A stretch of 64,000 nt of DNA from an uncultured Comamonadaceae bacterium (GCA_966211955.1 CBIHOF010000002.1:91581-155580); one strand, 5' to 3'. Counted from the stretch's first letter, positions 1,019 to 51,894 are shown. The notes: generated from the sequence alone by a model not told the origin. Translations and numbers: made by a program.

Positions 1019-2584
1019 TCATGTCATCGCCTGGCCGCTTGCCTTGTCGGCAATGCCGTGAAGCGCAAGGGTGCTGGACGCGATGGCCCGCGCGATGCGG
1101 TGCGCATGCTTGACGTTCAGTTCAAGCACGCTCGTGAAAAAGTAGGTGCCGCTCGTCAAGGTGCCGATCGCGTAGAAGTGAGGATGCTTGCCGCCATTGC
1201 CGTCGATAACCGATGCATCGTCGAAGGAGACGTCGATCCCACCCAGCGGATGCTGCCGGATCACTTTGTCGGCCAGCATCTGCCGCAGCAGCCGCGACTC
1301 GATGCGCTCGAGGTCGTCGGTCGATCCGGTGGCGTTGACCACGAAGTCGGCCTTCATTGCGTCATGGGTGTCACGGGTGCTGATGGAAAACGATTTGGTT
1401 GTCTCGCATGCGCTGACGTTCGTGATGGAGCGGACGACCTCGAGTTGTCCGCCTTCGATGAGCGCCAGAAGTCTTCTTGCGCTTTGCTCCGGCATGCCGA
1501 CTCTCAAGGACATCCACTTGCTTTGCATCACTGTGCGGAAGAACTTTCGTTCGCGCTGCGGCAGCCGATGCCACAGGATCTCCACCGCGACGTTCATCGC
1601 GCTCAGGACCGACTGCCAGGCACGCTGCTCCTTGCCGCCGGCCGACGTAAGCTCATGGCGCAGGTAGCTGGATGCGTCCCGTGGGCGCCTGAACCACTGA
1701 TGAATCTTGCCTGGCGATCCTGTGAGCCGGCCCACCTCCGAGGCAATGAGGTCGCGGATCTTGCGTAAAGACGTCGGTGCGGGTCGTGCCCTCAGCTCGC
1801 GACCGACGCCTTCCCAGAACTGCCGCGGGCTGTCGTCCACCTGGGTGGATTTGACGCTTGGCAGCATGCCGCTGCGAGAGCAGATGTACAGGCGCCCTTG
1901 ATGGCCGGCGGCCGACAAGGCAATCGCCGCGTCGACTGCGCTCAGGCGCGAACCGAGGATGGCAACCGTGGCCTGCGCCGGGATGCAACGAGTGAGCCGG
2001 GAGGCTGGGTAAGGTGAAGGGAGGTAGCGATCCCGGCCGGAAAGTCCCGGGTAGTGGTCTACCGTGTGGTTGCCGATGGCGAGGACCGCGTGCTGGGCAG
2101 TCAACATCGAGCCCGAAGCGCAACACACCGAATATGCCCCAAGGCGTGGATGCAACGAGGTCACCTCGTCGCACAACAAGTCCACCTGGATCTTCTTGCG
2201 CTGTGCTGCCGCCTGAGCCGCTTTGAGCAGGGAGGCCACGTGACGGCCGAACAGTCGGCGCGGCACGTAGTCGTCTTGCAGGCCCGCATCGAAGCGAAGC
2301 TGCGGAAAGTCTCTTCGCAAGGTGTCCGCGTTGTCCAGGCACCATTCATGGAAACGGCGCTCTTCACCGTGAATCGCGGACATCGTGGACGCTACGCGAT
2401 TGAGCAGTTGATCCTGGTTGTCCTCGCTGTAGGCTTGGCCCGGACCGATGTCGGGCGACCTGTCGAACATGACGATTCGTACCGGCGTCGCCCCCGTCAA
2501 CTCGTGGACAAGGTGATGGAGCGTCGCGACGCCAACGGCACCGCCGCCGATGATGGCAACGGTCACGGGGGAGGCGGAACCCAT
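1019..2584 (-). CDS. FAD/NAD(P)-binding oxidoreductase (NAD_binding_9-type flavoprotein, possible N-hydroxylase)
   Basis: VAIIGGGAVG dinucleotide motif, GPGQAY..LLN..A..MS, YVPRRLFG, second motif ILGSRLSAVD, VVNATG. ATG 2584 overlaps the upstream stop (TGATG). Confidence 0.8.
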   Translation of the reverse strand: MGSASPVTVAIIGGGAVGVATLHHLVHELTGATPVRIVMFDRSPDIGPGQAYSEDNQDQLLNRVASTMSAIHGEERRFHEWCLDNADTLRRDFPQLRFDAGLQDDYVPRRLFGRHVASLLKAAQAAAQRKKIQVDLLCDEVTSLHPRLGAYSVCCASGSMLTAQHAVLAIGNHTVDHYPGLSGRDRYLPSPYPASRLTRCIPAQATVAILGSRLSAVDAAIALSAAGHQGRLYICSRSGMLPSVKSTQVDDSPRQFWEGVGRELRARPAPTSLRKIRDLIASEVGRLTGSPGKIHQWFRRPRDASSYLRHELTSAGGKEQRAWQSVLSAMNVAVEILWHRLPQRERKFFRTVMQSKWMSLRVGMPEQSARRLLALIEGGQLEVVRSITNVSACETTKSFSISTRDTHDAMKADFVVNATGSTDDLERIESRLLRQMLADKVIRQHPLGGIDVSFDDASVIDGNGGKHPHFYAIGTLTSGTYFFTSVLELNVKHAHRIARAIASSTLALHGIADKASGQAMT

Positions 2585-3615
2585 CAATGCCTGCGCAGAA
2601 GAAAGCGGGCCGAGGTCATTCCGACGTGCTGGCCGACGTGGTTCCTGACCTCGCGTCGCGCCCACTTGGCGAGGGACGTCTGCTCGGGCTGCGACACGAT
2701 GCCCAGCTGTCGAAGGACTTCGATGGCCGCCATGATCTGCACCCAGCGATTGCCGTCCGACACCTTGACCGCGATCCCGATGCCCGCGCTGCGGATGCCG
2801 ATGGCCTGGATGCTGCCTGCACCGATCTTGGAGATGATCTCGCCGGGGCGTGAATTCATGAGATCGACGTCGTTGCGATGCTGGCCGCTGCCGAGGTAGG
2901 GGTGCGCAAGGATCGAGTGGGACAACTCACCGAGCACCCCTTCGCCGCGTGCCAACTTGGCATATCCCAGGGCGAGGCTGCGCAGTGGAATTCCGAAACT
3001 CGGCGCGGAGCAGTTGTCCGAGCCGGCCGGCATGGAATCAAGAGGCACTTCGCAAGTACGCGACACCGCCCGAGCGATCGCCTGCTGAAGAGGGTGCGAT
3101 AGCGCCACGTAGTTGTCCATGTCGGCGCCGTGCAGCCGGCACCACCCGAGAAAGCCGGCGTGCTTGCCAGAACATGTGTTGTGAACCTGCGTCACAACGA
3201 GGTCCGCCGGCGCCGCCATCCTTTGCCAGCTGTAGAAGTTGGGGGTATGGCATCCGCATCGCAATGCTGACTCTTCGCAGCCTGCACGATCGAGCATTCG
3301 CTGCACGACGGCCACGTGGCAGGCCTCACCGTTGTGGCTTGCACACAGCAAGGCGACGGCTTCGCTGTCGAAACCCAGAGCCGCAGGGCCATCCGACTCC
3401 ATGAATGGAATTGCCTGGAAGACCTTCAGCGCTGAACGCGGGAACACCACGGTCGCGGGGTCTCCCACGCTGTGGAGCAAGCGCCCGGTGGCGTCGACCA
3501 CCGCAACGGCGCCATGGTGGACGCTGTCGACGAGGCCATCGGTCTCGCCAGGCATGTGTCGCGTGGACACCACCAGCGGCTCATAAGGCGAAGCAATCCG
3601 AGGTCGATCTTTCAC
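2584..3615 (-). CDS. L-asparaginase II family (Rhizobium etli AnsA-type) amidohydrolase
   Basis: Motifs RSALK, ASHNGE, CSGKH, DNCSAP and SKIGA match the class 3 asparaginase Ser-Lys tandems and the Cys/Lys/Cys zinc site. Confidence 0.85.
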   Translation of the reverse strand: MKDRPRIASPYEPLVVSTRHMPGETDGLVDSVHHGAVAVVDATGRLLHSVGDPATVVFPRSALKVFQAIPFMESDGPAALGFDSEAVALLCASHNGEACHVAVVQRMLDRAGCEESALRCGCHTPNFYSWQRMAAPADLVVTQVHNTCSGKHAGFLGWCRLHGADMDNYVALSHPLQQAIARAVSRTCEVPLDSMPAGSDNCSAPSFGIPLRSLALGYAKLARGEGVLGELSHSILAHPYLGSGQHRNDVDLMNSRPGEIISKIGAGSIQAIGIRSAGIGIAVKVSDGNRWVQIMAAIEVLRQLGIVSQPEQTSLAKWARREVRNHVGQHVGMTSARFLLRRH

Positions 3616-3662
3616 GGCCTGGTGTCCTTGTTGTTGTCATGCCTCGCCCGTGCGACCCTTTC

Positions 3663-3677
3663 GCAAAGGCTCGGCCA
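3663..3677 (-). promoter_or_regulatory. putative sigma54 -24/-12 promoter
   Basis: Minus strand TGGCCGAGCCTTTGC with correct GG-N10-GC spacing, about 50 bp upstream of the asparaginase-like start. Confidence 0.4.
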
Positions 3678-3967
3678 TCTCCCTGCGCCTTTCGTGCGGC
3701 GTCATTCGCGCGCCGACATCGAACAGCGTTGCTCATCTGTTGAGCGGGCGCAGTCTAGCCGTGGCGTGCGCTTCCGTGTCACCGCAACGATGTAATAAAG
3801 CGTGCTCGACGAATGTCAGCGAGATTTCACATGGACGATGTATGCGTGTGCGATCCATCGAGAGTGAATCGCGTGGGCGGTAAGGGATACCGGCCTCGCG
3901 CATCCAAATGTGTTGGGCCCCAGGCGGGCTGGCGCTCACAAAAACACACAGCACCAAAACCGATCCG

Positions 3968-3994
3968 GCAAAGTGGTCTAAGCCACTTTGCTCG
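3968..3994. promoter_or_regulatory. palindromic putative transcription-factor site (copy A)
   Basis: GCAAAGTGG-TCTAAG-CCACTTTGC is a perfect 9-bp inverted repeat; a near-identical sequence recurs at 25035-25073. Confidence 0.55.
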
Positions 3995-4299
3995 ATGGCA
4001 ATCGACGTGCCCGCACCCATGAAAAGTGCGATCGACGTCAACGCATCATTCGAAGAAGCGGCGTGCCTTGCAGCCCTGCTTCTGATTTGCAGAGGTGCTT
4101 GCAACCGAACGTCTTGCAACCGGTTTCTTCACCTCGGTGCCGACCGCACCTCGGGTGGGTTATCGCGCTCTCATTTCGGGCCAAGGGTCTTCAGTTGTTT
4201 CGACCCTTTGGCGTGCGTGATGAGTCCAAACGCAACGCAATGGCGCATGCGTGATTCGACTTGGCGCAAACGTCACGACTTGCCAACCATTCATTGGAT

Positions 4300-4314
4300 T
4301 GGCCCAAATGTTGC
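4300..4314 (+). promoter_or_regulatory. putative sigma54 -24/-12 promoter of left EPS operon
   Basis: TGGCCCAAATGTTGC with correct spacing, about 50 bp upstream of ATG 4364. Confidence 0.5.
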
Positions 4315-4363
4315 GTCGCAGCAAGCGACTGAACACATGCCGCAAAGGCAAGGGAGATGGTTC

Positions 4364-5041
4364 ATGAACGCTGCAAGTTTTGTAGCGGGCGCTCGCATGA
4401 ACGCGCCCGCATCCCGATCGACAGACCCTTCGCGCGACCTGCTGATGTTGCGCATCAACCAGGCGGTGGCGCTCGCGCTGCTGCTGCTGCTCAGCCCGGT
4501 GATGCTCGTCATCACCTTCCTCATCTGGCGCCGGGACGGAGCGCCGGTCCTCTTCGCGCACTACCGCGTGGGCCAAGGCGGCAAGCTCTTTCGCTGCATG
4601 AAGTTCCGCTCGATGCTGCGCAATTCCGAGCAGGTGCTGGCCGATCTGTTGGCCACTGATGAAAACGCGCGTGAGGAATGGGCGCGCGATCAGAAGCTCA
4701 CCAACGATCCGCGCATCACCGGCGTCGGCCACTTCCTGCGCAAGAGCAGCCTCGATGAGCTGCCTCAGCTGCTCAACGTGCTGCGTGGCGAGATGGCCCT
4801 TGTCGGCCCGCGGCCCGTCACCGTGGGCGAACTCACCCGCTACGGCAAGGTGCGTTGGCATTACCTGAGCGTGCGCCCTGGCATCACGGGCCTGTGGCAA
4901 GTGAGCGGGCGAAACAACACGACGTATGAAGAGCGCGTCGCGCTGGATCGCCGCTACGTCGAGCAGAAGTCACTCTGGATGGACGTGGGCATTCTTTTCA
5001 GGACCGTGAAGGTGGTGGTGGCGCGGGAAGGGGCACGCTGA
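4364..5041 (+). CDS. priming sugar transferase (undecaprenyl-phosphate hexose phosphotransferase, ExoY-like short form)
   Basis: KFRSM, DPRITGVGHFLRKSSLDELPQLLNVLRGEMALVGPRP, PGITGLWQVSGR. One N-terminal TM helix; RBS AGGGAGA before ATG 4364. Confidence 0.92.
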   Translation: MNAASFVAGARMNAPASRSTDPSRDLLMLRINQAVALALLLLLSPVMLVITFLIWRRDGAPVLFAHYRVGQGGKLFRCMKFRSMLRNSEQVLADLLATDENAREEWARDQKLTNDPRITGVGHFLRKSSLDELPQLLNVLRGEMALVGPRPVTVGELTRYGKVRWHYLSVRPGITGLWQVSGRNNTTYEERVALDRRYVEQKSLWMDVGILFRTVKVVVAREGAR

Positions 5042-6246
5042 TGTCCGCCGCAGTACCGTTGGGAAGCCAGCACATGCGCTGGACAGATTCCGATGCCGGC
5101 CGCGTGGTGCACGTGGTCGGCTGTGTCACTGATGAGGTGTTCTCTTTTCTCGGTCCGGCCACGAATGCGCTCGCGCGCTCGGGCCTGGAGCAATCGGTGG
5201 TGATGATCGACGACACGCGCTATCGCCACCATGTGGTGAGCCTGCACGAGTCGGCCGAGCTCATCCTCACGCCGCGCGAGCGCAACCCGGTGCGCCAATG
5301 GCAGGCGGTGCTCAACGCATTTCGCGCGACCGCCTCGGGCGAACAATTGCGTGCGGTGCACCTGCACGGCATCCTGCCTTGCCTGGTCGGTGCGATTGCG
5401 ATGCGAACCTCCGGTGTCAAGGCGCCGATCTTCTATTCGCCGCACGGCTCGCGCTCGATGGGCCGCTTCAAGCCCATGGGCCAGTTGCTCTTGTGGCTGC
5501 TGCAGCCCGTGCTGCGGCCCGGGCGCAGTGCGGCCATCGTGAACGTCACTCGCGAGAAGGACGCGTTCAACAAGTGGAAAACGGTGGAGCTGGTCGAGAG
5601 CCCGGCCAGCGAAGTCTTCCTGCAGATGCCGCGCCATGAGTCGCGGCATCCCCTGGTCGTCACCGGCGGGCGCGCGCAGAGCGTGCGCAGCGCCGAGCTG
5701 ATGGCGCAGCTCGCGGTGCTCCTGGGTGACGAGGCGCTGCGCATCAGCTTCAACTGGATCGGCCGCGTCGACGAGGTCTCGCGCATGCGGCTGAACGCCG
5801 CCAACGTGAGCGTGTTCGAGGTGGCCAATGCCGAGGAATGCGCGACGCGCCTGTCCTCCGGCTGGATCTACGTCGCGCCCGGAGGCACGCGAGGGTTCCC
5901 GGTATTTCTCGTCGAGGCCATGGCCGCGGGCCTGCCTTGCGTCGCCATCGACAGCCCGCAACACCGCGAGGTGATCCGGGACGGCGAGAACGGTTTCCTG
6001 TGCGAGAGCGAACGCGAGCTGATCGGCTGCATCGCCACGCTCATCGACAGCCCGACGTTGCGCCAGCGCATCGGCAACGCCGCGCGCGCCGAAGCCCGCG
6101 AGCGCTTCGGACAGCAGGTCTTCAGCGACAAGCTGCTGGCGGCGTATTCGCTGGCCGATGCGTCGGCCGAACTCGAAGCGCCCGATGCCCCCAACCCTCT
6201 CGGCAAGCCTGACCTGCCCCAGATTTCCGGAAACCCCGCCACATGA
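5041..6246 (+). CDS. glycosyltransferase family 4-like (GT-B)
   Basis: C-terminal [18 protein letters not shown]...[16 protein letters not shown] coupling to the upstream gene. Confidence 0.75.
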
Positions 6247-7571
6247 AAGTCACCGTCATCGGAAGCGGCTACGTCGGCCTCGTCACGGGCGCCTGCCTGT
6301 CGGACATGGGCAACGACGTGCTCTGCCTGGACCTCGACGAGCGCAAGATCGCGATGCTCAAGGACGGCAAGATTCCCATCTACGAACCGGGCCTTCAAGA
6401 GGTGGTGCGCCGCAACGTGGAGGCCGGCCGCCTTCACTTCACCACCGACGTGCCGGCCGCCGTGCAACACGGCACGCTGCAGTTCATCGGCGTGGGCACG
6501 CCGCCCGACGAAGACGGCTCGGCCGACCTGCAGTACGTGCTGGCCGCTGCCCGCAGCATCGGCCGCCACATGACCGACTACAAGGTCGTCATCGACAAGA
6601 GCACGGTGCCGGTGGGCACGGCCGCGAAGGTCAAGGCGGCGATCGCCGATGAGCTCGCCGCGCGGGGCGTGGCACTGGATTTCGCCGTCGTCTCCAACCC
6701 CGAGTTCCTGAAGGAAGGCGCGGCGGTGGAAGACTTCATGCGCCCCGACCGCGTGGTGGTGGGTGCCGACGACGAGCGTGCCGTGCTGCTCATGCGCGCG
6801 CTGTACGCGCCCTTCACCCGCAACCGCGACCGCCTGCTGGTGATGGACGTGCCGAGCGCGGAGTTCACGAAGTACGCGGCCAACGCAATGCTCGCCACGC
6901 GCATCAGCTTCATGAACGAGCTGGCCCTGCTGGCCGAACGCGTGGGCGCCGACATCGAGCTCGTGCGCCAGGGCATCGGCAGCGACCCGCGCATCGGCAC
7001 GCAGTTTCTCTACGCCGGTGCGGGCTACGGCGGCTCGTGCTTCCCGAAGGACGTGAAGGCCCTGGTGCGCGCGGCGAAAGACAGCGGAATCACCTTGCAG
7101 GTGCTGACCTCGGTGGAGGCCGCCAATGAGCGGCAGAAGCTCGTGCTCGTGGACAAGGTCGTCGAGCGCTTCGGCGAAGACCTCACCGGTCGGCAGTTCG
7201 CGCTGTGGGGGCTGGCCTTCAAGCCCAACACCGACGACATGCGCGAGGCACCCAGCCGCGTCATCATCGAAGAGCTGCTGCGCCGCGGCGCGAACGTGCT
7301 GGCCTACGACCCGGTCGCCATCCACGAGGCAAGACGTGTGCTCGGGGATCTGCCCGGCCTGCGCTTCGCCAGCGATCAGGCGGCCGCCTTGCAAGGCAGC
7401 GATGCGCTGCTGATCGTCACCGAGTGGCGGCAGTTCAAGAGCCCGGATTTCGAGCAGATCCGCGCGACGCTCAAGCAGCCGGTGGTCATCGACGGCCGCA
7501 ACCTCTATGACCCGGTGCACATGAAGCAGATGGGCATCGAGTACCGCGGCATCGGCCGCGCGGCGCAGTGA
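6243..7571 (+). CDS. ugd: UDP-glucose 6-dehydrogenase
   Basis: [58 protein letters not shown]. Confidence 0.96.
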
Positions 7572-7584
7572 GGAAGGCCGGCCC

Positions 7585-8640
7585 ATGAGACCCGAGCCGA
7601 TCCGGCTGCTGACGCTGGACGCGATGCGCGGCATCGCGGCCATCCTGGTCATGCTCTACCACCTGAACGCCGCAGGCGCCCATGTGTTCAAGAGCGGCTA
7701 CCTCGCGGTGGACTTCTTCTTCGTGCTGAGCGGCTTCGTGCTCGCACGCACCTACGACGCGCGGCTCGCCGCCGGCCTGCCGTTCCGCGAATTCGCGGCG
7801 CTGCGCGTGATCCGGCTGTACCCGTTGATCTTCTTCGGCCTGCTGATCGGCGTCGCGCGCTTCGGCGGGCAGATCGTCATCCACCACCCCGACCGCATGA
7901 CGGTGCCTGACCTGGTGGTGAGCGCGATCTTCGAGATGCTGCTGCTGCCGTCGCCGACCTCCAATTTCATCGCGCCCTTGAACGCGCCGGCATGGTCGCT
8001 GTCCTTCGAGATGGCGGCCAGCCTCGTCTACGCGGCGTGGCTCGTGAAGGCCAAGCCGCGTGCGCTGCTGGCGGTGTGCGGCCTCTGCGGCCTCGGCGTG
8101 GTGTGGGCTGCGGTGCTGCACGGCTCGACCGGCTTCGGCTTCAAGTGGGACGACCTGCACACCGGTGTCGCGCGCGTCGGCTTCTCGTTCACGCTGGGCA
8201 TGCTCATCGCGCGCTCGCACCACAAGCCGGTGGTGAAGAGCCTTTGGGCCTTCGCGCCGATGGCGGTGCTCGGCGCGCTGCTGTGCGTGGACGTGACGGG
8301 CGGTGCACGCCTGGCCTTCGACCTCGCGATGGTGCTGCTGGTGTCGCCGCTCCTCGTGTGGTGGGGCGCGGGCCTCAACCCGCCGGACGCCGGCGCCGTG
8401 GTCTCGCGCTGGCTGGGCGATGTGTCGTACCCGCTGTACGCGGTGCACTTCCCGCTGCTCTTCATGGTGGGCTTCTTCGGCAAGAAGGCCGGCCTGCCGA
8501 CGGAGGTGTGGATGGCGATCTTCGCGGTGGGCATCCTCGTCTTCGCGACGCTGCTCGACCACTTCTATGACCGGCCGGTGCGCCGTGCGATGACGGAGGG
8601 CTTGCGCCGCATCCGCGTGGCGCGGCCGTCGCTCGCCTGA
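7585..8640 (+). CDS. acyltransferase family 3 (membrane O-acyltransferase)
   Basis: LDAMRGIAAILVMLYH, AVDFFFVLSGFVL, WSLSFE, LGDVSYPLYAVH; multi-TM. Confidence 0.9.
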   Translation: MRPEPIRLLTLDAMRGIAAILVMLYHLNAAGAHVFKSGYLAVDFFFVLSGFVLARTYDARLAAGLPFREFAALRVIRLYPLIFFGLLIGVARFGGQIVIHHPDRMTVPDLVVSAIFEMLLLPSPTSNFIAPLNAPAWSLSFEMAASLVYAAWLVKAKPRALLAVCGLCGLGVVWAAVLHGSTGFGFKWDDLHTGVARVGFSFTLGMLIARSHHKPVVKSLWAFAPMAVLGALLCVDVTGGARLAFDLAMVLLVSPLLVWWGAGLNPPDAGAVVSRWLGDVSYPLYAVHFPLLFMVGFFGKKAGLPTEVWMAIFAVGILVFATLLDHFYDRPVRRAMTEGLRRIRVARPSLA

Positions 8641-8645
8641 GTTCG

Positions 8646-9761
8646 ATGGCAAGCCAACAATCGTTCTCGCGCAACGTCAACGGCTTTCGCGGCCTGTGCG
8701 TGCTGCTGGTGTTCCTGCACCACGTCGCGCACTCCGGCCTCGTGCCGGGCGCGGACCCCGAATCTCTTTGGCAGCTCACGCTGCAGGAGCTCTTCATGAG
8801 CTTCGGCTACGGCGTGGAGCTCTTCTTCATGATCAGCGGCTACGTGATCGTGCAGAGCCTGCGCCGCCATTCGAGCGTGCGCGCCTTCCTCTTCGACCGC
8901 GTGCTGCGCATCTTCCCGGTGTGGCTGCCGCTCGCGCTCGTGCTGAGCATTGGTTGCCTGCTCACCGGCAAGATCGGCTTCGTGGCCTCCGAGCCTTCGT
9001 GGTGGTTGCCGGTGACGCTGGCCAACCTCGCCTTGCTGCCGCCTCTCATGCCCTTGCCACTCGTGCATCCGGCTTCCTGGTCCTTGAGCTACGAGTGGCT
9101 TTTCTACATCGCCTGCGCGGGTGTTGCCGTGCTGTGGCGTTCGCCCTCGTCATCGCGCGTGGGCAAGGCGGCGTGGGTCACTGCCGCGGTGCTGCTGATG
9201 TGCGCCATCCCGCGCTCGCTGTTCTTCCTGCCGGGCGTGCTGGTGGCGCTCGCGCCGCAGGTGGTGGCGCCGCTGCAGCGCGCCACGTGGCTGGCGGGTG
9301 CGAGTCTGCTGGTGCTGCTCGCCAGCTGGTTTTCCACTGGCATCTTCGCGGCGCAATTCGGCACGCCGCTGTGGTCGGTGGTGGCCGAAGGGCACGGCCC
9401 GGCGGTGCTCGTCGCACTTCTGGCCGGCACGCACCTCTTTGCCTGCGTCGCCGCACCCGACAACGCCGGGTTGTCCATCCTGCGCACGCGGGCGGCGCAG
9501 CACCTGGGCCGCATCAGCTACAGCTTCTACCTGATGCACCCAGTGGCGATGTCGATCGTCAAGCCCATCGTCGCGCGCACCGTGCCCGAGGGTTGGCCGG
9601 CCACGCTCGTCTTCTTCGCCGCCTCCGCGCTCGTCGCATGGGCGCTCGCCTATGCCTCCTGGGCCTTGCTGGAGCAGCGTTTCGCACGCTGGCTCAAGGC
9701 CCGCCACGCGCCGCGCTCGACCGCCGCACCGGTGGTTCTCGTTCAAGGACACAGTGCATGA
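8646..9761 (+). CDS. acyltransferase family 3
   Basis: NGFRGLCVLLVFLHH, GVELFFMISGYVI, WSLSYEW, LGRISYSFYLMH. Confidence 0.9.
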   Translation: MASQQSFSRNVNGFRGLCVLLVFLHHVAHSGLVPGADPESLWQLTLQELFMSFGYGVELFFMISGYVIVQSLRRHSSVRAFLFDRVLRIFPVWLPLALVLSIGCLLTGKIGFVASEPSWWLPVTLANLALLPPLMPLPLVHPASWSLSYEWLFYIACAGVAVLWRSPSSSRVGKAAWVTAAVLLMCAIPRSLFFLPGVLVALAPQVVAPLQRATWLAGASLLVLLASWFSTGIFAAQFGTPLWSVVAEGHGPAVLVALLAGTHLFACVAAPDNAGLSILRTRAAQHLGRISYSFYLMHPVAMSIVKPIVARTVPEGWPATLVFFAASALVAWALAYASWALLEQRFARWLKARHAPRSTAAPVVLVQGHSA

Positions 9762-11008
9762 CGACGCTGACGCCGGCGCGCCACGACTCGCGCCACGACA
9801 CGAACGGGCCGCGGGTTGCGGTGTACCGCTCGCCCATCCTGCCCATCTCCGAAACCTTCATCCGCGACCAGGTGCGCGCCCTGCAGCGCTGGAATGCGAC
9901 GCTCTTCGGCGAGACGCTGCTCGACCCGCGCCCGACGCTGGACGGTGCCACGCTGCGCGTGTTGTGGAACGACACGCGCCTGGGCCGCGCGCTGCGCCGC
10001 ACTGACCGCATTGCCGAGCGGCTGATGGGCCATTCGCCGGCCAAGCTGCGGGCACTTCGCACGCTGCGTCCCGATCTCATTCACGTGCACTTCGCGACCG
10101 ATGCGGTGCAGATCTGGCCGACGGTGAAGCGCCTCGCGCTGCCGATGGTGGTGACGCTGCACGGCTACGACATCAACACGCATGCCGACTGGTGGCATGC
10201 GGGCCATGGCGGCCCGCGCATGAAGGACTATCCCGAGCGGCTGCGCGCCATGGCGGCTGATGAGTCGGTGCATTTCGTGGCGGTGTCGCAAGCCATCCGC
10301 CGCGCCGCGCTGGCGCAGGGCGTGCCCGACGACCGCATGTCGGTCAAGCACATCGGCATCCCGACGCAGGGCTTTCCGGTCGACGGGCCAGCACCTTCGC
10401 AGCGTCGGCCTGACGTGCTCTTCGTCGGGCGGCTGGTGGAGAAGAAGGGGGCGCGGCACCTCATCGATGCGGCTGCTGCGCTGCGCGAGCGCGTGCCCGG
10501 CCTGCGCCTGGTGTTCATTGGCGACGGCCCCTGCCGCGACGAACTCGCGGCGCAGGCCAAGCGCCTGGACGTCGATGCACGCTTCCTCGGCGCGCAGCCG
10601 CAAGCCGAAGTGCGCCGGCAGCTCGTGTCCGCGCGTGCCTTGTGCCTGCCCAGCGTGACGGCGGCCAACGGCGATGCAGAAGGCATGGGCATGGTGCTGC
10701 TGGAGGCGCAGTGCGCGGGCGTGCCGGTCGTGACCTCTGCCAAGGGCGGCAGCGAAGAGGCCATCATCGACGGCGTCACCGGCTTTGCGTTCGGCGAGGG
10801 CGACGTGACCCAGCTTGCGCAGTGGCTGGAACTGCTGCTGCGCGACGGACCGCGCGCGGATGCGATGTCGCGCGAGGCGGCGCAATTCGTGCGCCGTCAA
10901 TTCGACATCGCGCACTGCACACGGGCGCTCGAGGCGCAGTACGACCGCATTCTCTCTGTCATGGCCGTGACTGGATCCGCCGGCCAACCGTCGTGGAATC
11001 CGCGCTGA
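9758..11008 (+). CDS. glycosyltransferase family 4 (WcaL-like)
   Basis: ATGA overlap at 9758. ISETFIRDQ, VTLHGYD, FVGRLVEKKG, EGMGMVLLEA (EX7E). Confidence 0.9.
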   Translation: MTTLTPARHDSRHDTNGPRVAVYRSPILPISETFIRDQVRALQRWNATLFGETLLDPRPTLDGATLRVLWNDTRLGRALRRTDRIAERLMGHSPAKLRALRTLRPDLIHVHFATDAVQIWPTVKRLALPMVVTLHGYDINTHADWWHAGHGGPRMKDYPERLRAMAADESVHFVAVSQAIRRAALAQGVPDDRMSVKHIGIPTQGFPVDGPAPSQRRPDVLFVGRLVEKKGARHLIDAAAALRERVPGLRLVFIGDGPCRDELAAQAKRLDVDARFLGAQPQAEVRRQLVSARALCLPSVTAANGDAEGMGMVLLEAQCAGVPVVTSAKGGSEEAIIDGVTGFAFGEGDVTQLAQWLELLLRDGPRADAMSREAAQFVRRQFDIAHCTRALEAQYDRILSVMAVTGSAGQPSWNPR

Positions 11009-12039
11009 ATCCCGTGGCACGACGCGGCCGATGGCTGTGGCTCGATGCACTCAAGGGCATCGGGATCATCGCGGTGGTGATCGGCCATGTGATCGATCGC
11101 GATGCGGCTCGCATGGTGTTCCTGTGGCACATGCCGCTCTTCTTCTTTGTCGCTGGGCTGGTGTTGAAGCCGGATGCTGACTGGCGGCGTTTCGCACGTG
11201 AGAAGGCGGCGCGGCTCCTGGTGCCGTATGCAGTGTTCCTCGTGCTGCTGTCGGGCCCGGACGTGATGGCGGTGGTGTCGTCGCACAGCATGCGCGACGC
11301 GCTGGCCTTCGCCGCTTCACGGCTCGCGGGCGGCAAGACGCTGTATGGCTGGCTCGCGGCGTTCTGGTTCATCACCTGCCTCTATCTCACGCAGCTCGCG
11401 GTCAACGCCTGTGTCGTTCGCTGGCGGCCGCGGACGGTGTCAGCGCTGATGGTGGCGATGCTGGTGCTGGCCTATGCCAATCAGCTGTTCTTCCCCAAGG
11501 CGTGGTTGCCGTGGGGCGCAAACGTCGTGCTGTTCGCGGCGCCCATCGTGTACCTCGGCATGCGCTTGCGGTCGCATCTCGGTGGGCGGGCGTGGTGGTT
11601 CGCACTGCCGGTCGCGGCCGGCGGCCTCGCGCTCGTGTTCGTGCATCTCGTGGAGGCGCCGGACATGAAGTATTCGCGCTACGGAACGCCGGGGTTGGCG
11701 CTGGTGTTGGGCATGGCCGTGGTGATGGCCCTGGTGGTGCTGGCCAGGCGCTGGCTCGACTCAGGCGTCGTGGCCATCGTTCTTGCGAAGCTGGGCGAGT
11801 CGTCCCTGCTCATCATGGTCCTGCACATGGCGATCCAGCAGGCATTGGATGAGACGTTGGCCGTGCATGACGTTTCACTGCGCATCGCGATTGCGTTGGT
11901 GGTGCCGACATTGTTGTATGCGGTGCTGGCGCGGTATGGGTGGTCGCGGCGCCTGGTGCTTGGGCTACCAGCGGGCGGCCGGCAGCGCCCGCCGGCCCTT
12001 GCGTCGATTGGGGTGGGGACTTCGGCAGGCTCAGTCTGA
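10993..12039 (+). CDS. acyltransferase family 3
   Basis: LDALKGIGIIAVVIGH, WHMPLFFFVAG, RLLVPY, WFITCL; multi-TM. GTG start at 10993 or 11014 is uncertain. Confidence 0.85.
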   Translation: MESALNPVARRGRWLWLDALKGIGIIAVVIGHVIDRDAARMVFLWHMPLFFFVAGLVLKPDADWRRFAREKAARLLVPYAVFLVLLSGPDVMAVVSSHSMRDALAFAASRLAGGKTLYGWLAAFWFITCLYLTQLAVNACVVRWRPRTVSALMVAMLVLAYANQLFFPKAWLPWGANVVLFAAPIVYLGMRLRSHLGGRAWWFALPVAAGGLALVFVHLVEAPDMKYSRYGTPGLALVLGMAVVMALVVLARRWLDSGVVAIVLAKLGESSLLIMVLHMAIQQALDETLAVHDVSLRIAIALVVPTLLYAVLARYGWSRRLVLGLPAGGRQRPPALASIGVGTSAGSV

Positions 12040-46704: not shown

Positions 46705-46887
46705 TCGCGCGGAGGCGGCGAACGCCTGCGTCGAAGTCCTCGTCCCAGACCCCGGCGCCACTTATCACCCTGTCGTTGCCAAGGACAGCCTCTTGCGGCG
46801 AAGGTGCGCCGCTCGGCGCACTGAATGTTTCGTCCCTGTGCGGCACAAAGCTTGCGACGGTGCGCCACCGTTCATGAAAGGTGGCTG

Positions 46888-47940
46888 ATGAAGAAAGGCA
46901 ATCTCCCTCTCCTGGCGACCGCGCTCTGTGCGCTGGCGCTCGGCCTGTTCGCTGCCGGTGCCAATGCGTCGCCGAAGTGCCTCACCGAATGCACGCCGCG
47001 CATCGGCATCGTCTCGGCCTTCGGGCAGGAGGCGGACATCCTGGTCGCGCAGACCACCGACAAGCGCGAGCACGTCATCAACGGCAACCGCTTCACCACG
47101 GGCCGCCTGCGTGGCAACCGCGTGGTCATCGTGCTGAGCGGCGTGAGCATGATCAACTCGACCATGGTCACGCAGCTGATGCTCGACCACTTTCGCGTCG
47201 AGCGGCTGCTCATGAGCGGCATCGCCGGCGGCGTGAACCCGGCGCACCACGTGGGCGACGTCACGATCCCCGACCGATGGGCCATGCCGATGGAGGTGTA
47301 CTGGAGCCACGATGCCAGCGTGCCCGCGCCTTGCGGCAAGGCTGGTGACGTGAGCTGCCTCGGCCTGAACCTCGCGGCGCCCAACGGCCAGGCGCTACCG
47401 CCCTTCAACCTGCCCAACGCGCCCACCGGCCTCTTCATGCGCGAGAACTTCGTGATGACGTCGGCCCATGCGCCGGCGGGCGAATACCGCTTCGACTACG
47501 AGGTGGACCCGGCCATGCTCGCGGTGGCGCGCGGCATCCACCCCGAGCTGCAGCGCTGCGGGCCGAAGGCCACGCCGCAGCCCAACGGCGAGCCCGACCC
47601 CAAGCTGTGCGTGCACACGCAGCCGCAGCTGGTCATCGGTGGGCGCGGCGTGTCGGGCACGGCCTTCCTGGCCAACCCGGACTACCGCCGCTACCTCTTC
47701 GACACGCTGCAGGCTCAGACCTTCGAGATGGAGACCGCGGCGCTGGCCCATGTGGCCTATGCCAACCATGTGCCATACCTCGCCTTCCGGAGCCTGAGCG
47801 ATCTCGCGGGCGCGGAGGAATTCAATGCCGACGTCGGTGCGCTCTTCGCGAGTGGCCTGGCAGAGACCAATGCATCCGCGGTCACGCTGGCATTCCTCGA
47901 TGCGTGGGCGAAGCAGCCGCGCCAAGGTGGAGCGAAATGA
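46888..47940 (+). CDS. exported MTA/SAH nucleosidase-like protein (purine phosphorylase fold)
   Basis: Signal peptide, GIVSAFGQE, SGVSMINS, SGIAGG, GDVTIP, FEMETAA, FRSLSDLAG. Confidence 0.85.
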   Translation: MKKGNLPLLATALCALALGLFAAGANASPKCLTECTPRIGIVSAFGQEADILVAQTTDKREHVINGNRFTTGRLRGNRVVIVLSGVSMINSTMVTQLMLDHFRVERLLMSGIAGGVNPAHHVGDVTIPDRWAMPMEVYWSHDASVPAPCGKAGDVSCLGLNLAAPNGQALPPFNLPNAPTGLFMRENFVMTSAHAPAGEYRFDYEVDPAMLAVARGIHPELQRCGPKATPQPNGEPDPKLCVHTQPQLVIGGRGVSGTAFLANPDYRRYLFDTLQAQTFEMETAALAHVAYANHVPYLAFRSLSDLAGAEEFNADVGALFASGLAETNASAVTLAFLDAWAKQPRQGGAK

Positions 47941-49007
47941 TGAATGTGTCCTCCTTCAAGCACTCGCTCGGCGCGCGATTGCTGACGACCCTGGTCGTGC
48001 TGTGCACGTGGTTGGCCGGGAATGCATCGGCGCAAACCGCACAGGCCGCGCCTCGCCCGCTCAAGGTCCTCGTCATCACCATGTTCGAACCCGAGGCCAC
48101 GCCGTGGATCGAGCCGCTGCACCTCACCGAGAAGATCGCGGTGCCCGGCCTCTTGCCCGACAGCCCCGACCTGCGCTGCAACAGCGACGACGTGTGCCTG
48201 CTCACCGCGGGCATGGGCCACGCCAACGCCGCCGCATCGACGCTCGCCGTCACGTTGGACCCGCGCTTCGACCTCACGCACACCTGGTTCCTCATCGCCG
48301 GCATCGCGGGCATCGACCCGGCACAAGGCACCATCGGCTCGGCCGCGTGGGCACGCTACCTCGTGGACGTGGGCATCGCGCATGAGATCGATGCGCGCGA
48401 GATGCCGCGTGACTGGAAGACGGGCTACTTCGGCATCATGACCCGCGGGCCCGGCGAGAAGCCGAAGTTCGACTATCACACCGAGGCCTTCCAGCTCGAC
48501 GAGGCGCTGCTGCAGAAGGCGATTGCGTTGAGCCGCAACGCGGTGCTCGAGGACAACGACAAGGCGCGCGCCTATCGCGCGCGCTACAAGCGTGCGCCGG
48601 CCAACCAGCCACCGGCTGTCATCCAGTGCGACACGCTGGGCGGCGACACCTGGTGGCACGGCCACCTGCTCGGCCAGCATGCGCGCGACTGGACCCGTTT
48701 GCTCACCGGCGGCCGCGGCACCTACTGCACCACGCAGCAGGAAGACAATGCGACCTACAACGCGCTCGCGCGTGCGGCCAGCGCCGGGCGCATCGACATC
48801 AAGCGCCTGGCCGTGCTTCGCACCGGATCGAACTTCGACCGCCCAGCGCCGGGGCAGACCGCACATGCATCGCTCATCGCGTCGACAACGGGTGCATCGG
48901 GCGGCTTCATGCCGGCGACGCACAACCTGTACAAGGTCGGCGGCTTGCTGGTGGAAGACATCGTGCGGAACTGGCCGCAGTGGCGCGAGGGCGTGCCGGC
49001 GCCTTGA
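47937..49007 (+). CDS. NUP (purine nucleoside permease) family exported protein
   Basis: ATGA overlap; signal peptide; KVLVITMF, AGIAGIDP, YCTTQQEDNAT, RTGSNFDRP. Confidence 0.82.
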   Translation: MMNVSSFKHSLGARLLTTLVVLCTWLAGNASAQTAQAAPRPLKVLVITMFEPEATPWIEPLHLTEKIAVPGLLPDSPDLRCNSDDVCLLTAGMGHANAAASTLAVTLDPRFDLTHTWFLIAGIAGIDPAQGTIGSAAWARYLVDVGIAHEIDAREMPRDWKTGYFGIMTRGPGEKPKFDYHTEAFQLDEALLQKAIALSRNAVLEDNDKARAYRARYKRAPANQPPAVIQCDTLGGDTWWHGHLLGQHARDWTRLLTGGRGTYCTTQQEDNATYNALARAASAGRIDIKRLAVLRTGSNFDRPAPGQTAHASLIASTTGASGGFMPATHNLYKVGGLLVEDIVRNWPQWREGVPAP

Positions 49008-49046
49008 GATTGGCGGGGCTTCACCGCTTGACGATCCACGTTCAAC

Positions 49047-49107
49047 CACCGAGGACACAGAGAACACACAGGCATTCTTCTCCTCCGTGTTCTCTGTGTC
49101 CTCTGTG
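49047..49107. repeat. long intergenic inverted repeat (stem-loop)
   Basis: CACCGAGGACACAGAGAACAC ... GTGTTCTCTGTGTCCTCTGTG, 21-bp arms with one mismatch and a 19-nt loop. Confidence 0.75.
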
Positions 49108-49177
49108 ATTCAAAGAGTCTGTGTATTGGCATGCCAGTTGCAAACGGTGCCCAGCATCGAAGCTCCTGGATGCACCC

Positions 49178-51394
49178 ATGTCCCCACATCACCTGGCGCG
49201 CGGGCGCTTGCCCGCGATGCTCGCGACGGCCTTCGCCTTCGCATCGCACGCGGCCTTCGCACAAGACGCCAAGCCCAGCGTGCTTGCGCCGGTCACCGTC
49301 ACCGCGGAGCGTCGCGCGGAGAACATCAAGGACGTACCGATCGCCGTCAGCACGCTCGGCGGCGAAGCGCTGGACGTTCTCAACTCCGGGGGCGAGGATG
49401 TCCGCTTCCTTTCCGGCCGCGTACCCAGCCTGAACATCGAGTCGTCCTTCGGCCGTGCATTTCCGCGTTTCTACATCCGTGGCTACGGGAACACCGACTT
49501 CCGCCTCAATGCCTCGCAACCCGTCTCGCTGATCGTCGACGACGTGGTGCAGGAGAACCCGATCCTCAAGGGCTTTCCGATCTTCGACACCGAGAAGGTC
49601 GAAGTGCTCGCCGGCCCGCAAGGCACGCTCTTCGGGCGCAACACGCCCGCCGGCGTGGTGAAGTTCGATTCGGTGGCGCCGGGCCGCAAGGCCGGTGGCT
49701 ACTTCAACGGCAGCGTGGGCAGCTTCAACAGCGTCAACCTCGAAGGTGCGTACACGATGCCCTTGAGCGAGCAGTGGTCGTCGCGCGTGTCCGTGCAGTC
49801 GCAACACCGCGGCGACTGGGTGAAGAACACCTTCGCCGCCGGCCCCACGCAAGACCTGGAAGGCTACGGCGACAACGCGCTTCGTGCGCAGTTCCTCTAC
49901 CAGCCCAGCCGCGATTTTCAAGCGCTCGTCAACGTGCATGCACGTGATCTCGACGGCAGCGCGCGGCTGTTCCGCGCGAACATCATCAAGCCCGGCACGA
50001 ACGGGTTCGTCGATGGCTTCGACCCGAAGACCATCTCCATCGACGGCAAGAACGAGCAGCACGTGAACACGGGCGGCACGAGCCTGCGCCTGAAGTGGGC
50101 GCTGGACGGCGTGACGCTGCACGCCATCACCGGCTATGAAAGCGTGCACTCCTTCAGCCGCGGCGACATCGACGGCGGCTACGGTGCCGTCTTTGCGCCG
50201 CCATCGGGGCCGGGTGTCATCCCCTTCCCGTCCGAGACGGCCGATGCGATGCGTGGCCACGGCCAGTTGACGCAGGAGTTCCGCGCCGAGTCCACCGCGC
50301 CCGGCCCGCTCAAGTGGCAAGGCGGCGTCTACGCCTTCAGCGAGCGCTATCACATCGACAGCAGCAGCTACGACTCGCTGGGCGGCGGTGCGAAGACAGG
50401 GCTCACCACCACGCAGCAGAAGAACAATGCCTGGGCGGTGTTCGGTTCGCTCAACTACGACGTGAGTCCGCAGCTCAAGGTGCGCGGCGGCCTGCGCTAT
50501 ACGCACGACAAGAAGGAGCTCGCGACCGACCCGGACGCATCGCTCGTCACGACCAACGGCCTGGCCACCAGCACCAGTGATTCCAAGGTCAGCTGGGACC
50601 TGAGCGGCACCTACGCCGTGACGCCGGACGCCAACCTGTATGCCCGCATCGCGACGGGCTTCCGCGGATCGAGCATCCAGCCCGCCTCAGCCTTTGGCGC
50701 GATGTCATCGGCCGGGCCCGAGACCACCACGTCCTACGAGATCGGCGCCAAGGCCGACGTGTTCGATCGCCGTGCCCGCGTGTCCTTCAGCCTCTTCCAC
50801 TACGACGTGCGCGACCAGCAGCTCACGGCGGTGGGCGGCACGAGCAACGCGACGCGCTTGCTCAACGCGAAGAAGTCCATGGGCCAGGGCCTGGAAGGCA
50901 CCGTCGAGGCTTACCTCGCCGAGAACCTGCTCGTGACGGTGAACGGCAGCTACAACCTCACGAAGATCAAGGACCCGGGCCTCGCGGTGGGCGTGTGCGC
51001 GGCTTGCACGGTGCTCGACCCGATGAACGCCGCGGGCCAGGCCATCATCGACGGCAACCCGCTGCCCAACGCGCCGCGCTGGATCGGCAACGTGACGCTG
51101 CGCTATGGCGTTCCCGCGGCCAGCGGCGGCGAGTACTTCGTCTTCACCGACTGGTCGTACCGCAGCCGCGTCAACTTCTTCCTCTACGAATCGACCGAGT
51201 TCACCGGCCGCGCGCTGCTCACCGGCGGCCTGCGCGCGGGCTATTCGTGGGCCAACGGCAAGTACGAGGCGGCGCTCTTCGGGCGCAACATCACCAACCA
51301 GATCCGCATCACCGGCGGCATCGACTTCAACAACCTCACGGGCTTCATCAACGAGCCGCGCATGTGGGGCGCGCAGTTCAAGGCGATGTTCTGA
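49178..51394 (+). CDS. TonB-dependent receptor
   Basis: Signal peptide, VTVTAERRAEN..DVPIAVS, plug motif VEVLAGPQGTLFGRNTPAGVV, C-terminal WGAQFKAMF. Confidence 0.93.
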   Translation: MSPHHLARGRLPAMLATAFAFASHAAFAQDAKPSVLAPVTVTAERRAENIKDVPIAVSTLGGEALDVLNSGGEDVRFLSGRVPSLNIESSFGRAFPRFYIRGYGNTDFRLNASQPVSLIVDDVVQENPILKGFPIFDTEKVEVLAGPQGTLFGRNTPAGVVKFDSVAPGRKAGGYFNGSVGSFNSVNLEGAYTMPLSEQWSSRVSVQSQHRGDWVKNTFAAGPTQDLEGYGDNALRAQFLYQPSRDFQALVNVHARDLDGSARLFRANIIKPGTNGFVDGFDPKTISIDGKNEQHVNTGGTSLRLKWALDGVTLHAITGYESVHSFSRGDIDGGYGAVFAPPSGPGVIPFPSETADAMRGHGQLTQEFRAESTAPGPLKWQGGVYAFSERYHIDSSSYDSLGGGAKTGLTTTQQKNNAWAVFGSLNYDVSPQLKVRGGLRYTHDKKELATDPDASLVTTNGLATSTSDSKVSWDLSGTYAVTPDANLYARIATGFRGSSIQPASAFGAMSSAGPETTTSYEIGAKADVFDRRARVSFSLFHYDVRDQQLTAVGGTSNATRLLNAKKSMGQGLEGTVEAYLAENLLVTVNGSYNLTKIKDPGLAVGVCAACTVLDPMNAAGQAIIDGNPLPNAPRWIGNVTLRYGVPAASGGEYFVFTDWSYRSRVNFFLYESTEFTGRALLTGGLRAGYSWANGKYEAALFGRNITNQIRITGGIDFNNLTGFINEPRMWGAQFKAMF

Positions 51395-51519
51395 GGGACT
51401 GAGGGTCGGCCGCGCCGGGGTGGCGCAGCCGCGCGTGGCGTGATGCAGCCTGATGCGATGTGAGGGCAGGGAGGGCGGGCTATGCTTGCCCCCCTCACTC
51501 ACTCACCCAGGGACGCGCG

Positions 51520-51894
51520 ATGCCTTCTGCCGACACCCTCGAGCGCTTCATTGCCATGGTCGAGAGCAACGACCATGCGCGCGCCTGCGAGGAGTTCTAC
51601 ACCGCCGGGTCCTCCATGCAGGAGAACCAGTCGCCGCCGCGCATCGGCCGCGATGCGCACGTTGCCAACGAACGCAAGGTGCTCGGTCGCGCGAAGTCGG
51701 TGACGTCGCGATGCGTGCGGCCGGTGCTGGTCAACGGCGACCATGCGGTGATCCGCTGGATCTTCCGCTTTGAATGGCTGGACGGCAGCATCACCCACAT
51801 GGAAGAGCTGGCCTGGCAGCGCTGGGAGGGCGAGCGCATCGCCGAGGAGACCTTCTTCTACGACCCTGCGCAGCGCGTTCCGCGCATGCCTTGA
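51520..51894 (+). CDS. NTF2/SnoaL-like protein
   Basis: 124 aa; EEFY..SSMQEN, GRDA, VIRWIFRF, EELAWQRW, ETFFYDP. Confidence 0.8.
   Translation: MPSADTLERFIAMVESNDHARACEEFYTAGSSMQENQSPPRIGRDAHVANERKVLGRAKSVTSRCVRPVLVNGDHAVIRWIFRFEWLDGSITHMEELAWQRWEGERIAEETFFYDPAQRVPRMP

Follow-up and report, generated by a model that had tools for sequence, protein, structure and literature searches.

A candidate sigma-54-controlled envelope locus for nucleoside scavenging in an uncultured Comamonadaceae bacterium

Overview of the locus

A compact three-gene locus, encoding an exported relative of the 5'-methylthioadenosine/S-adenosylhomocysteine (MTA/SAH) nucleosidases (MTANs), a protein of the NUP family (PF06516, 'purine nucleoside permease') and a TonB-dependent receptor (TBDR), lies in a 64,000-nucleotide stretch of DNA from an uncultured Comamonadaceae bacterium (GCA_966211955.1 CBIHOF010000002.1:91581-155580; the whole stretch is called the window here, and positions refer to it). 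We consider it probable, at roughly 0.6, that the locus is a sigma-54-controlled envelope system for the scavenging of purine or adenosyl nucleosides. TonB-dependent uptake followed by periplasmic cleavage of purine nucleosides had been proposed in a first-pass annotation made from the sequence alone, and the proposal is favoured by the conserved linkage of the genes, their shared promoter class, the conserved catalytic residues and the genomic contexts of NUP genes elsewhere. The annotation knew of no characterised locus with this composition, and full-text literature searches found none either. The three open reading frames (ORFs), exactly as annotated, lie on the same strand and span 46888-51394:

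46888-47940, + strand: gene 1, MTAN-like protein of 350 aa (Pfam PNP_UDP_1, E 9.7e-36)
47937-49007, + strand: gene 2, NUP family protein of 356 aa (Pfam NUP PF06516, E 6.8e-125)
49178-51394, + strand: gene 3, TonB-dependent receptor of 738 aa (Plug E 7e-13, barrel E 2.4e-35)

The first two genes are joined by the ATGA overlap noted in the first pass, which was confirmed by direct reading of the sequence (ATG at 47937-47939, TGA at 47938-47940). Gene 3 follows after a gap of 170 bp and has a promoter of its own; the three genes belong together as had been claimed, but apparently as two transcription units rather than as one tight operon. Each of the three proteins carries at its N-terminus the annotated signal sequence, which is of the basic-hydrophobic-AxA type, and no further hydrophobic segment was found beyond it in any of them. 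The window is high in GC (about 0.68). The closest locus, with 77-87% protein identity, is that of Albitalea (Piscinibacter) terrae, the best relatives are Sphaerotilaceae-type betaproteobacteria, and the host of the trio is taken to be a soil or freshwater betaproteobacterium.

The NUP protein

The product of gene 2, whose N-terminal signal ends in LVVLCTWLAGNASA and is followed by QTA, matches PF06516 over the full length of the family (profile positions 2-313) with 416.8 bits against a gathering cut-off of 27. The possibility that it is a membrane permease was considered and rejected. In the Kyte-Doolittle profile no 19-residue window exceeded 1.6, the maximum of 1.48 lying within the signal peptide; no membrane segment was found past the signal peptide, and the AlphaFold2 model (pLDDT 86.8) is globular and of the MTAN fold. 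The best Foldseek matches of this model were MTANs, with E about 1e-12 and a template modelling (TM) score of about 0.7 on the target. At the sequence level, a single-sequence search of the Protein Data Bank (PDB) returned no relatives of NUP, and a profile search returned only a marginal, N-terminal match, in which E53 aligns to the water-activating Glu12 of MTAN. Profile-profile comparison with hhalign related the N-terminal half of NUP to the MTAN-like gene 1 family with 90% probability. In an alignment of 22 diverse NUP sequences (38-85% identity), E53, E269-D270 and R295 were invariant, and S298 and the cysteine pairs C81/C87 and C231/C264 were nearly invariant. Cysteine pairs kept in this way, as in the gene 1 protein too, are typical of proteins that are exported. 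Based on the model, NUP is predicted to be a soluble, exported protein of the MTAN fold and not a membrane permease, and its residue pattern indicates that it is probably catalytic as a nucleosidase.

In this superfamily, a glutamate at the position of Glu12, instead of the arginine and serine that serve as phosphate ligands in purine nucleoside phosphorylase (PNP), marks hydrolases over phosphorylases. NUP has no Arg-type phosphate site at this position, and since both NUP and the gene 1 protein carry a glutamate there, both are expected to be N-ribosyl hydrolases. The name 'purine-nucleoside phosphorylase', given to members of the NUP family in some NCBI and UniRef records, is opposed by the conserved glutamate, which argues for a hydrolase; no NCBIfam model matched the NUP of the window. 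The name 'permease' rests on the NUP of Candida, with which adenine-auxotrophic yeast grew on adenosine without toyocamycin sensitivity (PMC9431476). Both of these results would be accounted for equally well by an extracellular nucleosidase that releases adenine. In addition, a cyanobacterial member of the family was labelled in a proximity proteome of the thylakoid lumen (PMC7880944), which agrees with a soluble, non-cytoplasmic NUP.

The MTAN-like protein

The N-terminus of the gene 1 product reads MKKGNLPLLATALCALALGLFAAGANA up to the signal cleavage point and SPKC after it. Among the NCBIfam models the protein is nearest to those of MTA/SAH nucleosidases, scoring 116 bits for PRK05584 (cut-off 169), 88.5 bits for PRK14697 (cut-off 260) and 73.8 bits for TIGR01704, exactly the cut-off of 73.8, and it rises above none of these equivalog cut-offs for MTA/SAH nucleosidase (MtnN/Pfs, EC 3.2.2.9). 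Solved MTANs match it in two stretches, residues 38-131 and about 241-314, and the two halves are separated by a Cys-rich insert of ~120 residues (roughly 131-255). This insert sits where canonical MTANs carry the loop that shapes the 5'-alkylthio pocket, and the protein thus departs from the compact form of ~230 residues with canonical 5'-alkylthio pocket and dimer loop. The catalytic positions listed in the first-pass annotation are retained: in the alignment with solved structures, E48, M281-E282 and R301-S302-x-S304-D305 correspond to Glu12, Met173-Glu174 and Arg193..Ser196-Asp197 of MTAN (E. coli numbering), and E48, M281-E282, R301, S304 and D305 are invariant in 23 homologues with 54-97% identity, ranging from Burkholderiales to Nostoc and Leptolyngbya. 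The mature protein contains six cysteines (C31, C35, C149, C157, C224 and C241), and these are likewise all invariant from Burkholderiales to cyanobacteria, a pattern that fits three disulfides, several having been thought likely at first reading, and an extracytoplasmic location.

The AlphaFold2 model of the protein has a confident core, and residues 135-200 have a pLDDT below 50. Its best Foldseek matches were MTANs, with a TM score of about 0.8 normalised to the target, and the fold matches include the periplasmic MTAN of Aeromonas hydrophila (PDB 5b7q) and the Borrelia entry 4l0m. The earlier remark that MTANs are normally cytoplasmic holds as a general statement, to which the exported exceptions of Aeromonas hydrophila and Borrelia must be added. 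A search of 1.84 billion cluster representatives returned 93 clusters at E <= 1e-30, many of them 300-350 residues long and aligned in a single stretch running across the insert; judged by these sequences, the 'long' MTAN-like form is a real subfamily. A separate PNP_UDP_1 gene elsewhere in the host genome scores higher than gene 1 and could fill the housekeeping role.

The TonB-dependent receptor

TBDRs are marked by an N-terminal plug, a 22-strand barrel and a terminal aromatic residue. The receptor carries the plug PF07715 and the barrel PF00593, its N-terminal signal ends in FASHAAFA before the cleavage point and QD, and its C-terminus is KAMF, with a terminal aromatic residue. Matches to solved relatives were confined to the plug region. 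An identity as a siderophore or iron-regulated receptor was considered and found unlikely. The score for the siderophore-receptor subfamily TIGR01783 was 88.8 bits against a cut-off of 223.5, neither a FecIR pair nor an N-terminal signalling extension of the receptor was found, and no Fur box was detected in the upstream region, which is GC-rich, contains a sigma-54 element and lacks any AT-rich dyad of the Fur type. Iron regulation of the receptor, which the first-pass annotation had named as a sign against nucleoside uptake, is thus not suggested by the sequence.

Conservation and linkage of the three genes

The gene 1 family was scanned in one genome per species, which yielded 80 loci, and the partner genes were located by tblastn. 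The gene order of the window (MTAN-like, NUP, receptor) was found in 24 loci, from Rhizobacter, Ideonella, Methylibium, Piscinibacter, Aquincola, Caldimonas and some Comamonadaceae metagenome-assembled genomes (MAGs). The order NUP, receptor, MTAN-like was found in 7 loci, from Scleromatobacter and 'Vitreoscilla'-labelled MAGs, with an eighth such locus lacking NUP, and a few loci contained the MTAN-like and NUP pair alone. The synteny survey suggested at the first pass therefore gave 31 further loci with the linked trio, in two gene orders. Beyond the trio, no neighbouring gene, whether for a regulator, an inner-membrane carrier or another function, was conserved across the compared loci. In a receptor tree built by maximum likelihood, 29 of the 30 linked sequences and one orphan of the same family formed one group (support 92/91). 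The receptors of the rearranged order formed a single clade nested within this group (support 100/100), so that the second order is derived, the trio having stayed together through the rearrangement. The other orphan receptor homologues, with 52-63% identity, fell outside the linked group.

Among 301 genomes sampled evenly from the host's order, 13 had the receptor clade, 13 had NUP and 3 had the MTAN-like gene. The trio is rare overall and concentrated in particular genera. Apart from the genome of the window, one of the sampled genomes has all three genes, but they are dispersed and the MTAN-like copy is interrupted by a stop codon. This copy, in a Burkholderiales genome (G253:C1:4913218-4914240), is a homologue with 68% identity and an in-frame TGA; the dispersal and the TGA may reflect decay of the system.

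Independent contexts of NUP genes

NUP genes were found in 13 of 401 sampled Pseudomonadota genomes, and several of their contexts point to an outer-membrane route for nucleosides. Directly upstream of NUP lies a gene for the nucleoside channel Tsx in two loci (L105 and L106). In L101 a tandem pair of NUPs precedes an unrelated TBDR, which is 28% identical over 185 residues to the receptor of the window. Locus L108 has the order adenosine deaminase, NCS2 purine permease, TBDR, NUP, and it is the only type of locus in which the NCS2 permease was found. Locus L127 has the order TBDR, NUP, NUP, metallo-beta-lactamase-fold protein, NUP, PNP_UDP_1, adenosine deaminase, IU-nucleoside hydrolase. The soluble enzymes of L108 and L127 all have signal-like N-termini. 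Except for that of L101, the TBDRs of these loci were not picked up in a search with the receptor of the window, and on this sequence evidence they belong to other clades. As NUP adjoins unrelated TBDRs or Tsx, its pairing with an outer-membrane nucleoside route has arisen more than once. These independent contexts are the strongest argument that the receptor of the window may carry nucleosides and that cleavage may take place in the periplasm. L127 (G608:C1:240732-260556, positions 1276-11926) comes from another Burkholderiales family; its third NUP is apparently split in two frames, and a fourth NUP and ExbB/TonB-like ORFs occur further along.

Sigma-54 promoters

Sigma-54 promoters have the consensus TGGCAC-N5-TTGC, with a -24 GG and a -12 GC element. 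An element TGGCA(C/T)-N5-TTGC is common to the aligned spacers between NUP and receptor genes, and one element of this type precedes each transcription unit of the window:

46842-46855, + strand: P1, sigma-54-type promoter GGCAC-N5-TTGC, gcGGCACaaagcTTGCga, upstream of the MTAN-like gene (pattern scan)
49128-49141, + strand: P2, sigma-54-type promoter, ttGGCATgccagTTGCaa, upstream of the receptor gene (spacer alignment and pattern scan)

The scan pattern GGCA[CT]-N5-TTGC has a background of 75 matches in 985 kb, both strands counted, and the chance expectation per site is about 0.006. An element of the P2 type was present 38-150 nt ahead of the receptor start in 22 of the 24 same-order loci, and one of the P1 type 27-152 nt ahead of the MTAN-like gene in 17 of the 24 and in 5 partial loci. 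Upstream of P1, the flanks consist of unrelated genes in different genera, which indicates that P1 has been preserved by selection rather than through common descent of its surroundings. Variant elements occur in some loci without an exact match, and before the receptor in the rearranged loci. Six of the latter (L002, L005, L006, L013, L014 and L033) share a conserved GGCC(T/C)TC(G/C)TCTTGC, with GG-N10-GC spacing, about 92-110 nt before the receptor start, which may be a divergent sigma-54 promoter. The positions of the elements also bear on the start codons: that of P1 excludes an upstream ATG at 46825 for gene 1, and that of P2 favours ATG 49178 over GTG 49121 for the receptor.

RpoN domains were found in the host genome, and hence rpoN is present. 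The same promoter type stands ahead of nirB, narK, several genes for binding proteins of ATP-binding cassette (ABC) systems and an ABC operon of the PnrA/Bmp type in this genome. The last of these (C1:386531-392718, minus strand) belongs to a nucleoside-binding family and comprises the sigma-54-type promoter GCTGGCACATCCGTTGCT, behind which lie genes for permeases, an ATPase and an isochorismatase-like hydrolase. It could be the inner-membrane partner of the locus, or a purine system that is regulated together with it. Two transcription units under one promoter class, as read from the sequence, speak for co-regulation of the locus, not necessarily by nitrogen. No sigma-54 elements were found at the corresponding positions of the independent NUP loci, so that sigma-54 control would be specific to the present lineage. 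A sigma-70 promoter scan gave zero matches, and a search for riboswitches and known RNAs upstream of either unit gave only chance-level miRNA matches.

Proposed mechanism and alternative explanations

In the favoured model of nucleoside scavenging, an enhancer-binding activator would switch on the two sigma-54 promoters, P1 driving the translationally coupled MTAN-like and NUP genes and P2 the receptor gene. The TonB-energised receptor would concentrate nucleosides from dilute surroundings into the periplasm, where the two exported MTAN-fold N-ribosyl hydrolases would strip off the sugar. Because the gene 1 protein combines the Asp197-type purine-protonating residue with a remodelled 5'-pocket, its substrates should be adenine nucleosides, namely adenosine, MTA, SAH and 5'-deoxyadenosine, and NUP would handle additional purine nucleosides. 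The released base and the ribose moiety would then enter the cell via inner-membrane transporters encoded elsewhere and would be used as a nitrogen source or in purine salvage.

A number of observations weigh against this model. Nucleosides are small enough for porins or Tsx, and the case for requiring a TBDR comes only from the parallel with TBDRs that take up sugars and vitamins. The MTAN-like gene is solitary in about 40 of the 80 loci, in unrelated contexts (Collimonas, Herbaspirillum, Polaromonas and cyanobacteria); 12 other Burkholderiales genomes contain orphan receptor homologues (52-63% identity) among unrelated genes, which means that the receptor clade is not exclusive to the proposed system; and among the 301 genomes of the host's order the adjacent trio was found only in that of the window. 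Neither an inner-membrane transporter nor a regulator is encoded within the locus, and no activator gene is conserved beside the trio among the compared loci. No canonical NtrC site (TGCACC-N5-GGTGCA, <=3 mismatches) was found within 350-400 bp of P1, the matches on the P2 side lie inside conserved NUP coding sequence, and TGCACC half-sites do precede nirB and narK in the host genome. Comparison of the regions upstream of P1 in 16 loci, representing about 15 unrelated contexts, revealed no convincing shared k-mer or dyad. Finally, the poorly modelled insert leaves the specificity of the gene 1 protein unreadable from the structure.

Four alternatives were weighed against nucleoside scavenging. 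The system might harvest thionucleosides derived from S-adenosylmethionine (MTA, SAH and 5'-deoxyadenosine) that neighbouring cells release, either to gain sulfur or methionine (by way of methylthioribose and S-ribosylhomocysteine) or to remove them as signals, and not general purine nucleosides for nitrogen. The close sequence and fold relationship of the gene 1 protein to MTA/SAH nucleosidases, with the full catalytic set, would suit such a role, as would sigma-54 control, since SfnR of Pseudomonas is a sigma-54 activator for sulfur scavenging. Aeromonas possesses a periplasmic MTAN, whose proposed substrate is MTA from the environment (PMC6302742). We nevertheless regard this account as rather unlikely, as the region of the 5'-alkylthio pocket is replaced by the 120-residue insert, the protein lies under the MTAN equivalog cut-offs (exactly at that of TIGR01704), no methylthioribose kinase, LuxS or sulfur genes were found near the locus, and the company of NUP elsewhere (Tsx, adenosine deaminase, IU-nucleoside hydrolase and base permease) fits ordinary nucleosides. 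It is also unlikely that the receptor is uncoupled from the enzymes, importing another cargo such as a metal complex or a different nutrient while the enzymes cleave nucleosides that diffuse through porins, with adjacency reflecting shared regulation or history. The receptor does have its own promoter behind a 170-bp gap, its weak best family matches are siderophore-type receptors, and both it and the MTAN-like gene occur without their partners; against this stand the linkage in 31 further loci, which survived rearrangement, the promoter class shared by enzyme unit and receptor, the lack of a Fur box, FecIR pair or signalling extension, and the unrelated TBDR clades that also adjoin NUP genes.

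The two remaining alternatives concern the enzymes and their substrates. NUP could be a non-catalytic periplasmic binding protein or pseudo-enzyme that passes nucleosides or bases to an inner-membrane carrier, leaving the MTAN-like protein as the sole enzyme. This would accord with the historical transport phenotype of Candida NUP (PMC9431476), with the restriction of the sequence-profile alignment to the N-terminal half, and with the change of the Ser-Asp motif to S-N-F-D, in which the Asp is not invariant. It appears very unlikely in view of the invariant E53 at the water-activating position, the invariant E269-D270 and R295, the MTAN fold of the model over the full length, and the tandem NUP paralogues of several loci, which suggest diversified specificities. 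An action on special nucleosides, such as plant cytokinin ribosides or nucleoside antibiotics, for signal interference or detoxification, seems scarcely probable: many carriers are root or soil isolates (for example Rhizobacter Root strains and LjRoot28), and a remodelled pocket could accept unusual substituents, but freshwater and glacier-stream metagenome genomes and cyanobacteria are among the carriers too, the active import of an antibiotic would be counter-productive, and nothing favours these compounds over common nucleosides.

A broader form of the nucleoside-scavenging model, to which we give slightly less than even odds, would hold that bacteria of several phyla run an undescribed envelope pathway for purine capture, in which a TBDR or Tsx supplies nucleosides to a set of exported enzymes of the MTAN fold and the base alone passes through the inner membrane. 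The whole 'purine nucleoside permease' family would then be misnamed and consist of periplasmic or secreted nucleosidases, and in the Sphaerotilaceae version both units would be under sigma-54 control, making purine nucleosides a regulated nutrient, possibly one of nitrogen limitation.

Relation to known systems

The locus follows the known design of TBDR nutrient loci, in which the gene for an energised receptor of the outer membrane adjoins those for exported hydrolases, and these cut the imported nutrient into small units; it differs in the proposed substrate class, the type of enzyme, the absence of a carrier and regulator, and the sigma-54 control. Well-known examples are the carbohydrate utilisation (CUT) loci of Xanthomonas and Caulobacter, with SuxA for sucrose, MalA for maltodextrin and NagA for N-acetylglucosamine. 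The linkage of a receptor to exported catabolic enzymes was found here in the 31 further loci and in the parallel NUP-TBDR and NUP-Tsx loci, whereas the inner-membrane transporter and regulator that such loci possess are missing from the window. Nucleic-acid-derived nutrients are the targets of the rus (ribose/nucleoside) and ddbABCDEF (DNA) loci of Bacteroides, in the Bacteroidota (PMC12478041). In contrast, the locus described here has a classical proteobacterial TBDR without a SusD partner, encodes no nuclease, kinase, inner-membrane carrier or regulator, and combines predicted MTAN-fold N-ribosidases with sigma-54-type promoters; nucleosides would be a new substrate class for a proteobacterial TBDR. 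No characterised TonB-dependent nucleoside route in Proteobacteria was found in the literature.

The export of MTANs has precedent in Aeromonas and Borrelia. MtaN-1 of Aeromonas hydrophila (PDB 5b7p/5b7q) is described as a periplasmic MTA/SAH nucleosidase by Xu et al. (2017), as cited in PMC6302742, and entry 4l0m of Borrelia burgdorferi is a putative MTA/SAH nucleosidase. Both share with the gene 1 protein the MTAN fold and a signal peptide, and exist besides a cytoplasmic paralogue. They are about 250 residues long and have the canonical 5'-alkylthio pocket, and no TBDR or NUP partner is reported for them, whereas the gene 1 protein has the 120-residue insert with two additional Cys pairs, and its scores fall short of the MTAN equivalog cut-offs or, for TIGR01704, equal the cut-off.

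The NUP of Candida albicans, the founding member of PF06516, belongs to the same family as gene 2 and is tied to the use of external adenosine and guanosine (PMC9431476). It was read as a transporter, whereas the bacterial NUP is predicted to be soluble, exported and of the MTAN fold with catalytic residues, and on the strength of the model a role as nucleosidase is more likely for it than one as transporter. Tsx of enterobacteria resembles the receptor as an outer-membrane route for nucleosides, and it adjoins NUP in L105 and L106, but it is a passive channel and cleavage in E. coli is cytoplasmic; the route proposed here would be TonB-dependent and the cleavage periplasmic. With the NtrC-dependent sigma-54 nitrogen regulons (nasA/nirB, amino-acid and urea ABC systems) the locus shares its promoter class, as do nirB, narK and ABC genes of the host, and it differs from them in having no canonical NtrC site in the 350-400 bp next to P1 or, outside the NUP coding sequence, next to P2. 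Purines are nitrogen-rich. Nucleosides are among the dissolved organic nitrogen compounds contested by environmental bacteria (PMC8027193).

If the model is correct, proteobacterial TBDRs gain a new substrate class, the widely propagated 'purine nucleoside permease' label of PF06516 would be reassigned to exported nucleosidases, and the phenotype of Candida NUP would be reinterpreted. It would also define a long, disulfide-bearing MTAN-like subfamily common to Burkholderiales and cyanobacteria, and provide a clean pair of sigma-54 promoters for finding a new activator and its signal.

Other features of the window and host genome

The spacer between genes 2 and 3 contains a strong hairpin, which was considered as an intrinsic terminator; none is present there, the hairpin being a dispersed element that resembles repetitive extragenic palindromes (REP):

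49041-49113, no strand assigned: REP-like palindrome, an inverted repeat with 32-nt arms that are 84% complementary, between the NUP stop codon and P2

The palindrome folds at -68.5 kcal/mol (z -4.3), and about 20 further copies with 74-84% identity are scattered over the contigs of the host. The corresponding spacers of relatives lack it and have P2 at a distance of 10-106 nt from the NUP stop codon, and it is not specific to the locus.

Downstream of the receptor, a small SnoaL/NTF2-like ORF at 51460-51894 lies between gene 3 and glrK; it stands beside the trio in no relative. The GlrK-QseG-GlrR genes that follow are not kept next to the trio in relatives. On another contig of the host (C3, about 215-256 kb), GGCAC-N5-TTGCC elements, often in the form GGGCACAxCGxTTGCC, are densely distributed upstream of small response-regulator-like and other ORFs of no assigned function. 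An rpoN gene, at about C3:244458, lies amid this cluster, which may form a sigma-54 island that has a separate regulon.

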